From the NCBI RefSeq assembly GCF_964213995.1, contig NW_027590119.1, positions 2,294,001 to 2,358,000 on the forward strand: 64,000 nucleotides of DNA, given 5' to 3'. Under the pieces are notes generated by a model that saw nothing but the letters and a program-made list of their open reading frames with translations, was not told the origin of the DNA and searched no databases. The translations under genes were made by a program, and so were the position numbers. Shown piece after piece: positions 15,789-62,905 of the stretch. The stretch comes from Mustelus asterias (lineage: Eukaryota). Each line of letters begins with the position of its first letter. The stretch's first letter is position 1.

Positions 15789-15989
15789 AGAGAAACAAAA
15801 ATATACCTGGGCCTAGTCCTGTTCCTGAATCCAGTCTTCATCTGTAACCTTTCCAGAGTCTGCTGCCTCCCTGGATTCACTTCCTTTCCCTTCAGTTGCT
15901 GCAAGTCCCCAATTTCCCCCAGAATGAGAAAAGAAATGGAAAGGGGGAAACATTGATTTCCTCCCAGATGTTGCCCAGAGGAGGGAGTT

Positions 15990-16420
15990 TGGACAACTTC
16001 CACATTGTGACATCATAATAGAGCTCTGCCTAAATCAGCCAATAGGAATCATTCTGCTCCGCGATGACGTCTCCGGCTTCCAGCGCACAGGCCCGGGCGC
16101 GCGGACCCGGGAACCCCGCTCCCACCCCCACCCATTGTTCCCCCTCCACCTCTTCCTGCCACGGTTTCCAATCAACCGGCTGACAGCTCCGGCCAGAGCG
16201 AGAAGCCGCGGAGTGATCGCCCCCTCCCTCGGCCCGGGACTGCGCATGTCCAAGGGAGAGGGGAAGATGCGCATGTGCGGGGGAAGCCAACCTTTTGACC
16301 TGCTGCTGAGGTATTGGCCAATGGAATGTTGGAGGACCGGAAGTTCTCTGGTCCTCCAGCCAATCAGAGCTCCCCCATTGTCTGAATGCGGAAGTGGACA
16401 ATGAGCTTCATATAAAGCAA
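15990..16420. promoter_or_regulatory. Bidirectional CpG-island promoter of a ZNF pair
   Basis: CCAAT boxes, TGACGT, NRF1-like TGCGCATG, ETS CCGGAAGT, dyad at 16330-16358; paralogue of 29735-30100. Confidence 0.75.
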
Positions 16421-16435
16421 TTTTTTTTTAAAGCG

Positions 16436-16648
16436 GCATCTCGGCCTTTTGGCTAAGATGCAAATGCGCCCAAGTCTGGAGGAGGATCCTCCCCCTTCTC
16501 CAATCAGCTTGGCTCATGTAGATCAGGCCCAGGACAGGGTGGTTTGGTCGCTTGCCCTGTCTTGCCAGCCTGGATCGGAAATGTCTCAACTTGTTGAGAC
16601 TCTGAATTGGATTTGATTTGATTGAATTGGAAAAGTATTTTAAAAAAG
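16436..16648 (+). ncRNA. U2 snRNA-derived structured element (SINEU-like or divergent U2 pseudogene)
   Basis: TCTCGGCCTTTTGGCTAAGAT equals U2 nt 7-27; several downstream hairpins; rest not alignable to canonical U2. Confidence 0.65.
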
Positions 16649-17357
16649 CTGCTCATTCCTGCCCAGCAAAGCTGCTGCTGCTCTCTCTCTGAATGAACAT
16701 TGAGCTTCAGACACAGACTCAAACTTCTCCAGTCATCAACATCTGTGAGTAAAACACTTTATTTTCTCTTCCTTTCCATTTCTTTTCTCATTCTGGGGAA
16801 ATTGGGGACTTGCAGCAACTGAAGGGAAACGGAGTGAATCCAGGGGGGCTGCAGACTCTGGAAAGGTTGGCCCAGGTCTCTCTTTCTCTTAAAGACATTA
16901 ACATCCTTTGCTCCCTCAGCTTGACACATTGATTTGTCTGGCTAAAAGGTCCCTTTCCTAATGTTCACAATTAAAGGGCTGGTTTCCCCAGGTGATGGCT
17001 GACATTTAAAAGGACAATAAATGAATATAGGACAGAGATATGCCTAGTGTTGTTATATTGTAGATTTGGTATATTATTTATGGTTCTGAAACAGAGTACA
17101 TTTATTATTAATTCTCGTTTTGTAATGTAGCACTGAAGCTATGTTATATATTTTCACTCATTGAGTCATTACAGCGCAGAAGGAGTCCATTCAGTAACTC
17201 GAATCCATGCCGACTCTCTGTAGAACAATCCAGTCAGTCCCATTCCCTTTCTCTATCCCCTTTCCCCTGCAACTTCATTTCCTTCATGTCCCCATCTAAT
17301 TTCTGAAATATATTAAAGGGGACAGTAAACTAATACAGGACAGAGACGTGTCTGATG

Positions 17358-18333: not shown

Positions 18334-19044
18334 GGTGAATATTAGATACAGCAGAGTGAGAATGGAGGGAGAGTGTGTGGGATGGAGATTCACAGCTTTT
18401 GGGGAATGAGAGAGGAAAGAATGTTCATTAGAATCATAGAATTGCTGCATCTTATCAACCGTCCCTGAGCTTTCACAATGAATCCCACTTCTGAGGACAC
18501 CCTTATCTCTGACTTGTCTGTACTGCTGGCAGTCTCACAAAGCAGCTGCCTGTGTGCTGATATGGGAGGCCCTGCTGGGCAAGTTTAATGCTCCATGACT
18601 GTGTCTTTAAAGAATACTCCATAAACTAGAAATGTAGATTTGAATTTCGATCATATTCTGAATTGCAATGTTTTTTTTCTAAATTGACTTACAGGATATT
18701 AGACAAGGAGAAATCAGACAGAAATCTCCAACATCACATCGAGATCTGACAGAGTGACTCGATTTCTTGGGACCTGAATATCATCGGCCTTTGAATCTAG
18801 CAGGAGAAATGCTTGTTTGGCCTCTTGGCTTCAAAAGATTGTAAACATCACTGTTACTAGAAATGCACTGAGATACACACACCCGAGTGAGAGTGTTCCA
18901 GTGCAGTGAGTGTGGAAAGAGCTTTAACCAGTTACACAGCCTGAAAATACATCGCAGCATTCACAGCGGGGAGAGATTGTACCCGTGACCTGTCTGAGAT
19001 TTAACTGATTGTTTAACCTGGAGAGTCACAAGGACACCCGCACC

Positions 19045-19971
19045 ATGGAGAAACCGTGGAAATGTGGGAACTGTGGGAAGGGATTCATATCCCCATCTCA
19101 GCTGGAAATTCATCAACGCAGTCACACTGGGGAGAGACCATTCACCTGCTCTGTGTGTGGGAAGGGATTCACTCAGTTATCCAGCCTGCAGAAACACAAT
19201 CTCACTCACACCAATGAGAGACCATTTAAATGCTGTGACTGTGGGAGTGGTTTTAAAAGCTCTCAGGATCTGGTGTCCCACCAGCGCATTCACACTGAGG
19301 AGAGACCGTTCAGCTGCTCTCACTGCACAAAGAAATTTAGAACTTCATCCAACCTGCAGATACACCAGCGAGTTCACACTGGGGAGAGACCGTTCACCTG
19401 CTCTGTGTGTGGGAAGGGATTCACTCAGTCATCCAGCCTGAAGACACACCGAGTCATTCATACCAATGAGAGACCCTTTAAATGCTGTGACTGTGGGAAT
19501 GGCTTCAAAAGCTCTCAGAAACTGATCGTCCACCAGCGCATTCACACTGAGGAGAGGCCGTTCAGCTGCTCTCACTGCTCAAAGAGATTTAGAATATCTT
19601 CAGCATTGCTGAACCATCAGCGAGTTCACACCAGGGAGAGACCATTCACCTGCTCGGTGTGTGCGAAAGGATTCACTCAGTTATCCAGCCTCCGCAGACA
19701 CAACATCACTCACACCCCGGAGAGACCCTTTAAATGTTCTGACTGTGGGAGTGGCTTCAAAAGCTCTCATGAACTGATTACCCACCAGCGCATTCACACT
19801 GGGGAGAGACCGTTCAGCTGCTCTGACTGTGGGAAGGGATTCGCTCAGTCATGCAACCTACGGGTACATCAGCGAGTTCACACTGGGCAGAGGCTGGTCA
19901 CCTGCTCTGTGTGTGGGAAGGGATTCACTCGGTCAGCAAACTTGGTGAAACACCAGCGAGTTCACAAGTGA
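19045..19971 (+). CDS. C2H2 zinc-finger protein (11 fingers, class A)
   Basis: Intact array; gcaccATGG; splice acceptor at ~18694. Confidence 0.92.
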
Positions 19972-62319: not shown

Positions 62320-62905
62320 TTCCCTGCGGCCCTACAAGTGCTCTATTCACTCCACAGGAGTCCAGTGCGCAGGCGCCTTGCTGTATCCGGAGCATGCGCA
62401 GTGTCACTTTGCTCAGAGTTCTGCGAGTGCGGGAGCTACTTTTTCCAGCGGGTGAGAGTCGGTCGGGCGGAGGGAGGAATGGAGACGGGCTGGGGGGCTG
62501 GGGGGGGGGGGGGGGGCGGAGCAGAGGCTTCACAAACACCCGCGGAGGCCGCAAGCCCAGAATGAGAGTCGAGATTGCAGCTCCGGGGATTCACTCCTGG
62601 GCACTGGCCCAGGTGGCACAGTGGTCAGCACTGCTGCCTCACAGCACAAGGGACCCGGGTTCAATTCCCGGCTTGGGTCACTGTCTGTGTGGGTTTACTC
62701 CGGGTGCTCCGGTTTCCTCCCACAGTCCAAAGATGTGTGGATTAGGTAGATTGGCCATGAGAAATTGCCCCTTAGTGTCAGGGGGACTAGCTCGGGTAAA
62801 TGCATGGGGTTATATGGGGATAGGGCCTGCAGACTCAATGGGCTGAATGGCCTCCTTCTGCACTGTCGGATTCTATGATTCTAGGTTAGCGGCCACCATC
62901 TTGGG
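62320..62905. promoter_or_regulatory. CpG-island promoter of the next ZNF gene, split by an HE1 SINE at 62611-62883
   Basis: GCATGCGCA, GC boxes, YY1-like GGCCACCATCTT at ~62892. Confidence 0.6.

Follow-up and report, generated by a model that had tools for sequence, protein, structure and literature searches.

A U2-headed SINE of the shark Mustelus asterias with copies at the Keno site of U2 snRNA genes

The window analysed here, the whole stretch of 64,000 nucleotides from Mustelus asterias, contains a copy of a ~340-nucleotide non-autonomous retroposon that is headed by a piece of U2 snRNA and is present in the genome in thousands of copies. The element has spread by retroposition, occupies the site in U2 genes that is used by the LINE Keno, is found fused to U2 position +1, and has left retrocopies derived from U2 gene arrays. 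Taken together, the data make it likely that this SINE is copied by the genome's own Keno and transcribed from source copies residing in the U2 arrays.

The copy in the window is truncated at its 5′ end and lies upstream of a C2H2 zinc-finger (ZNF) open reading frame. Its component parts and immediate surroundings are as follows.

16409–16647, plus strand: 5′-truncated copy of the U2-headed SINE (element nucleotides ~105–343), 96.6% identical to the nearest dispersed copies
16411–16416, plus strand: TATAAA, a G-to-A change of the element-internal TATGAA in the 3′ arm of the linker hairpin; no promoter of the element
16439–16459, plus strand: inner (second) U2 piece, U2 nucleotides 7–27, whose flanking bases close a longer hairpin
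16464–16517, plus strand: hairpin H4, with a loop that differs between subfamilies; related to H5 by duplication
16521–16576, plus strand: hairpin H5, whose 3′ arm opens a weak colinear match to U2 nucleotides 40–117
16583–16600, plus strand: perfect hairpin, at the position of U2 stem-loop IIb in the weak alignment
16606–16647, plus strand: U-rich tract followed by the terminal motif AAAAGTA(TA)TTTT, similar to the 3′ end of Keno, and a short A tail
16648–16744, plus strand: ZNF promoter and putative 5′ exon sequence, resuming after the insertion, reaching a GT donor at 16745 and common to hundreds of paralogues
19009–19971, plus strand: C2H2 zinc-finger ORF, the presumed host gene

An earlier note on this DNA placed the start of the element at 16436 and took the U2 piece just inside it for the head. 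The copy actually starts at 16409. What had been seen was the last two thirds of the ~340-nucleotide element, and the piece in question is an inner, second one; full copies are ~130 nucleotides longer at the 5′ end and open with U2 nucleotides 1–39. Comparison with the genome's own U2 gene nonetheless confirms an exact 21-nucleotide identity to U2 nucleotides 7–27 at 16439–16459, and the extended hairpin, the GGAGG/CTCC hairpin, the long stem at 16521–16576 and the perfect hairpin at 16583–16600 that had been described are all present in the predicted fold (z −3.4; equalled by none of 200 shuffled sequences), as is the U-rich tract in the sequence. The TGTAG at 16517–16521, which had been likened to the branch-site region, is not the U2 branch-site hexamer. 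A TATAAA does occur, at 16411–16416, but it lies inside the element and is not an upstream promoter; the family copies and the duplicate of this locus on C471 read TATGAA.

The element is absent from the 30.1-kb paralogue, as had been claimed, but that paralogue already diverges before the site and does not constitute a clean empty site. Of the 30 loci fetched with downstream flank, two are filled, the window locus and C471, and the 28 others, likewise ZNF paralogues, all show a clean empty site. There is no target site duplication (TSD) around the window copy; 4–5 nucleotides of target have been replaced, and the 5′ junction shows a 2-nucleotide microhomology at 16407–16408. The status of the insertion site as a first exon would follow from the GT donor at 16745 and the ORF at 19009–19971, and the copy, which has no promoter, is a passenger in a probable 5′ region of a ZNF gene. 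We note that window positions 15846–15973 and 16737–16868 form an inverted pair, 88% identical, which flanks the ZNF promoter, much as if two 5′ exon/intron starts were arranged bidirectionally. Elsewhere in the window, 62607–62679 gives the sole Rfam match of the window at the gathering score, a tRNA-like one (30 bits) that is probably the head of a tRNA-derived SINE.

The earlier proposal of a U2-derived SINE is borne out by the thousands of dispersed copies, with TSDs, A tails, 5′ truncations, subfamilies and empty paralogous sites. An exact 28-mer pattern from the element has 4,598 matches in the genome and an exact 21-mer pattern from the tail has 4,207, the control patterns having none; both counts are lower bounds. 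A genome search with the element returned 2,329 candidates, and the 40 that were scored are 96–98% identical and lie on many contigs. In a full copy the head is identical to the genome's U2 nucleotides 1–39 at 39 of 39 positions. TSDs were found in 71 of 134 distinct copies, compared with 1.1 in shuffled pairings, and in 16 of 34 copies of a positionally unbiased set, with a median length of 16 nucleotides when adjoining A's are counted. The 5′ ends of the 134 copies fall at U2 nucleotides 1–2 in 39 cases, at 3–20 in 65, and further in for the remaining 30. An A tail is typical, the flanks are varied in appearance, the several subfamilies differ chiefly in their hairpin loops, and the median private divergence is 1.9%. 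Runs of six organisms contain 0.24–0.55 of the sampled words, and 9,760 reads from 1.9 Gb of raw DNA reads of organism D align to the SINE body, ending in poly-A, indicating that the family is multicopy there too.

Copies of the SINE cluster with one another: eight of 99 gaps are shorter than 400 bp where 0.06 would be expected, and a single TSD is repeated up to five times in such clusters. Divergence gives no signal as to the polarity of the tandem insertions (11 versus 8). At L172:5579–6300 (minus strand), L020, L048 and L123, a single unique site holds a stack of as many as four elements, in which Keno and SINEs from different subfamilies occur together and one TSD recurs; these stacks include insertions adjoining headless copies. 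A further arrangement is seen at L008, L026 and L133, where one SINE has inserted, inverted, directly after the U2 head of another; fold-back arms may have arisen in this way.

The partner LINE was found in a U2 array on C24 with an 8-kb unit. It encodes an ORF1 (ZCCHC3-type, with a zinc knuckle) together with APE endonuclease, reverse transcriptase and zf-RVT domains, its homologues include named Tx1 relatives ('transposon TX1' protein), and its tail is followed by U2 nucleotides 38–191. On sequence grounds this APE–RT non-LTR element, lying in U2 genes just before nucleotide 38/39, is a U2-headed, U2-targeting Keno of the Tx1 type. All 17 of the LINE 5′ ends shown carry U2 up to nucleotide 35; 13 of these are outside the C24 arrays, four of the 13 representing one duplicated event. 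A Keno 3′ UTR pattern has 212 matches, mostly dispersed outside U2 genes. None of the 10 copies fetched has an unbroken ORF2 (two ran past the fetched stretch), the longest stop-free run being 1,063 aa. The array itself (L046; C24:44.81–44.94 Mb) consists of 16 tandem units of 8,035 bp, each with an intact U2 gene and a Keno-interrupted U2, the Keno ORF2 being itself broken by another repeat. At L244:6683–7870 an internally deleted and diverged Keno-like element, made up of the head, ~100 nucleotides of 5′ UTR and ~1 kb of the 3′ end, directly precedes a full U2 copy.

The link to Keno is stronger than was originally suggested, in that the two elements have a common head, a common target site and a habit of co-insertion, a SINE following directly in six cases when the first 30 3′ ends of Keno are inspected. 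The earlier note's own counter-case, that the stretch is simply the 5′ junction of a Keno element, is excluded, as beyond the U2 head the body of the SINE is unlike the Keno 5′ region. Nor is the SINE an internally deleted LINE of the SIDE kind, its body having no match to the Keno of L046 or to the Keno-like element of L244. The tails of the SINE and Keno have only a short motif in common, a marginal similarity (equalled or bettered in 50 of 1000 shuffles). A long LINE-derived tail was also sought, and the 3′ search gave SINE copies only among the 40 matches scored; with the search limited to these 40, another partner LINE is possible.

We find the tail of the SINE joined to U2 nucleotide 38/39, the Keno site, at seven places, with none in the control. 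The upstream sequence of the main type of U2 gene has 58 matches, and of the 13 units read, which were picked around irregular spacing, one contains the SINE. In the last gene of the main array the order is promoter, U2 (1–39), SINE, TSD, truncated Keno, TSD, SINE and U2 (38–191); this copy at +1 is not a master, because it has a private deletion. Seven of the 13 units read at C24:43.02–43.055 Mb (L179–L181) have a tandem duplication of a ~16-nucleotide piece (nucleotides ~20–37) in place of nucleotides 38–50, possibly the scars of abortive Keno insertion that have spread through the array.

A second type of U2 gene forms units of 448 bp (175 bits) and has no octamer that we could find upstream. 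Its upstream 25-mer occurs at 15 sites, leading into an intact U2 at four, into Keno at four, and into the SINE at +1 at seven. One of these seven is in the C21 array, five are in four dispersed blocks, and one (L231) is without a TSD that could be found. The dispersed blocks (L227, L228, L230 and L232/233) have TSDs of 10–18 nucleotides, an A tail at the end, and from 35 to ~390 nucleotides of second-type U2 array DNA ahead of the SINE. They show that U2 arrays with a SINE in them gave rise to RNA that was reverse transcribed and inserted elsewhere. Array-derived copies belong to several different subfamilies. The loci that can be named are C24:43,060,550, C21:28,064,5xx, and retrocopies on C1, C6, C7 and C14 in which the SINE is fused to U2 +1 or accompanied by array DNA. 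Only two copies at +1 were observed within an array, and U2 upstream DNA is lacking from all 39 full-length members of an earlier set, so that the array link rests on eight copies. Some SINE copies are preceded by U2 5′ pieces of other lengths (to nucleotides 47–53), which template switching explains equally well. At C21:28.05–28.08 Mb (L234–L241) the second U2 type is ~86% identical to the main type beyond nucleotide 38, and its units are heavily occupied by Keno copies with a common deletion.

Six full copies of the SINE give whole-element folds with z values of −3.4 to −8.2. A full copy begins with the U2 head, which pairs with a G–U-rich mirror arm. A linker hairpin and a run of T's lead to the inner hairpin with U2 7–27, after which come two duplication-related hairpins and the perfect hairpin; the U-rich tract is next, and the tail closes the copy. 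The duplication relationship of H4 and H5 is matched by only 0–3 of 500 shuffles. The fold-back arm of the head is predicted to pair with U2 nucleotides ~10–39 and to mask most of the branch-site-binding bases, four to six of the six being paired in the predicted folds of four copies. The consensus structure that RNAalifold derived from the alignment of 105 copies was poor, and the fold of the majority sequence was used. After removal of three duplicate loci, pairing is kept in 21 of 39 variants common to subfamilies (at least four copies) versus 36 of 135 private ones (p=0.002), and without A-to-G changes in 12 of 30 versus 22 of 121 (p=0.015). Subfamily variants keep pairing more often than private ones, but there is only one fully compensatory pair.

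A-to-G changes outnumber T-to-C changes in the 105 copies (193 versus 122), and six copies have 5–22 A-to-G changes each, whereas none has five or more T-to-C; when those six are set aside the numbers are 129 and 113. ADAR disfavours a G immediately 5′ of the edited A. G is depleted 5′ of the changed A's, a neighbour bias that fits ADAR editing of double-stranded RNA; there is no enrichment of the A-to-G changes in predicted stems (26/217 versus 28/148).

The earlier note also saw in the order of the structural parts a loose mirror of U2 itself, a likeness that is weakly supported. One test was negative (384 of 500 shuffles as good) and nhmmer found no U2 similarity in the SINE body, but a transition-weighted test aligns U2 40–117 colinearly with the 3′ part of the SINE (2–39 of 1000 shuffles as good in eight tests), 21 of the 27 mismatches being transitions. 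The linker was considered as captured U2 promoter DNA (115 of 1000 shuffles as good, not significant) and as U2 41–191 (also not significant), and both were discarded. Rfam finds no U1 or U4 piece in the family.

In L228, L230, L075 and L215, additional 5′ pieces of U2 are joined on through microhomology. These junctions, the small number of array-resident copies found, and the many masters implied by many subfamilies could all be accommodated if masters of this same retroposon used any flanking promoter, the U2 head being renewed by template switching onto U2 snRNA and the copies in U2 genes being by-products of the Keno preference. We consider such an origin unlikely, since the head/body junction at nucleotide ~39 is identical in all subfamilies, the fold-back arm is complementary to the head, and the retrocopies carry spacer DNA of U2 arrays. 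More doubtful still is the reading in which the element has a promoter of its own, either as an ordinary SINE of the Pol III kind or as a Keno with an internal deletion. In size, A tail, TSDs and high copy number the element does look like a normal SINE, and the Keno-like copy of L244 demonstrates that internally deleted forms exist; against this, Rfam at E≤10 gives only U2 and chance matches on a full copy, with no tRNA, 5S or 7SL piece and hence nothing of the head and internal promoter of a canonical Pol III SINE, and beyond the head nothing resembles the Keno 5′ UTR or ORFs. The head and linker contain T runs of 4–6, which would stop Pol III.

By far the least probable reading is the other one offered at the outset, in which a TATA promoter belonging to the window element would drive a functional RNA, a remodelled variant of U2. 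The strong fold and the weak colinearity with U2 40–117, including the IIb and Sm-site regions, are what might have been expected of such an RNA. However, the element in the window belongs to a mobile family, of which it is a truncated copy; it is absent from 28 paralogues, and its TATAAA is a private mutation. It has none of the full structure, branch-site hexamer, contiguous Sm site or snRNA promoter of a U2 gene or variant, Rfam calls no U2 in the window at the gathering score, and the U2 genes of this genome have their own arrays on C24 and C21.

Returning to the reading that we prefer, Keno-mediated copying of transcripts from the U2 arrays, the enzyme of the SINE is very probably Keno ORF2p, and there is a good chance that the U2 promoter or arrays are the main source of transcription. 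Where the SINE is inserted at U2 38/39, its head coincides with U2 nucleotides 1–39 behind the gene's own upstream DNA. Initiation by the snRNA promoter at U2 +1 would produce most templates, so that every retrocopy would have the head and no promoter; that most copies start at or just inside nucleotide 1 is as expected from this. Read-through of the arrays would account for the rarer copies with 5′ extensions. Keno ORF2p would prime at the A-run, and relaxed target choice would scatter most copies, with a strong tendency to re-insert where a copy is already present. Masking of the branch-site bases by the predicted fold-back would stop the RNA from taking the place of U2 or poisoning it.

The closest known elements are SINEU-1, -2 and -3, described in the available text of Kojima (2015, PMC4494074) from crocodilians only, as mobilised by Tx1-Mar and preferring Mariner-N4_AMi, with their transcription left open and with a U2 head proposed to be renewed by template switching onto U2 snRNA. 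Like them, the new SINE has an snRNA head, is shorter than 500 bp, ends in an A tail, shows TSDs or deletions of the target, contains repeated U2 pieces and internal oligo-T, forms tandem insertions that share a single TSD, and has a Tx1 partner with an snRNA head (PMC4494074). With its U2-derived 5′ head, short length, A tail and many copies of one common structure, which are not independent retrocopies, it fits the SINEU class as there described and probably works in the same way, and the descriptions of SINEU-2 (U1+U2) and SINEU-3 (one internally deleted U2) set it apart from both (PMC4494074). It differs from SINEU in targeting the Keno site of real U2 genes rather than Mariner-N4_AMi (PMC4494074), in having no U1 piece that we could find, in a head locked in a predicted fold-back hairpin, and in array-derived retrocopies that point to source loci. 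Two further papers in their available text (PMC5786205, PMC7245038) cite SINEU and add no taxa. In the freely accessible papers surveyed on SINEU, Keno and shark snRNA SINEs, SINEU is confined to crocodilians and no snRNA-headed SINE of a shark turned up; prior cataloguing in Repbase or Dfam is possible.

Keno is described as a Tx1-clade LINE targeting U2 (PMC4494074), and the 3′ flank of Utopia is U2 from nucleotide 38/39, stated to be identical for Keno (PMC4640811). The LINE of this genome has the corresponding APE endonuclease and is followed by U2 from nucleotide 38/39, the SINE using the same site (PMC4640811); it has its own U2 1–35 head and is mostly dispersed outside U2 genes. The SINE is non-coding and has only the head and the short terminal motif in common with it. 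In functional terms the closest analogues, as far as the text available to us describes them, are the R2 and R2/R1 SIDEs of Drosophila rDNA, internal LINE deletions with a 5′ ribozyme that are confined to rDNA (PMC3414825). Like these, the SINE is a non-autonomous element at the target of a site-specific LINE in a multicopy RNA-gene array and is probably served by host-gene transcription, whereas its body is not LINE-derived, the 5′ end of a host RNA is kept as its head, and its spread is genome-wide (PMC3414825).

These findings extend SINEU-like elements beyond the crocodilians. They also supply the site-specific Keno with a natural cargo that is itself non-autonomous, a matter of interest for the recognition properties of ORF2p. 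The named loci also make the transcription of promoter-less snRNA-headed SINEs, an open question since Kojima (2015, PMC4494074), directly addressable. More tentatively, and at somewhat less than even odds, the element may be an RNA parasite composed almost wholly of serially duplicated and reworked U2 pieces, breeding in U2 genes with the captured branch-site sequence hidden in the fold-back and its copies serving as landing pads for SINE and Keno alike. If this is true, insertion at the Keno site would generate a U2-promoter transcript of U2 1–39, the element, and U2 38–191 with its Sm site and 3′ box, and the parasite RNA would ride the snRNA pathway without poisoning splicing.
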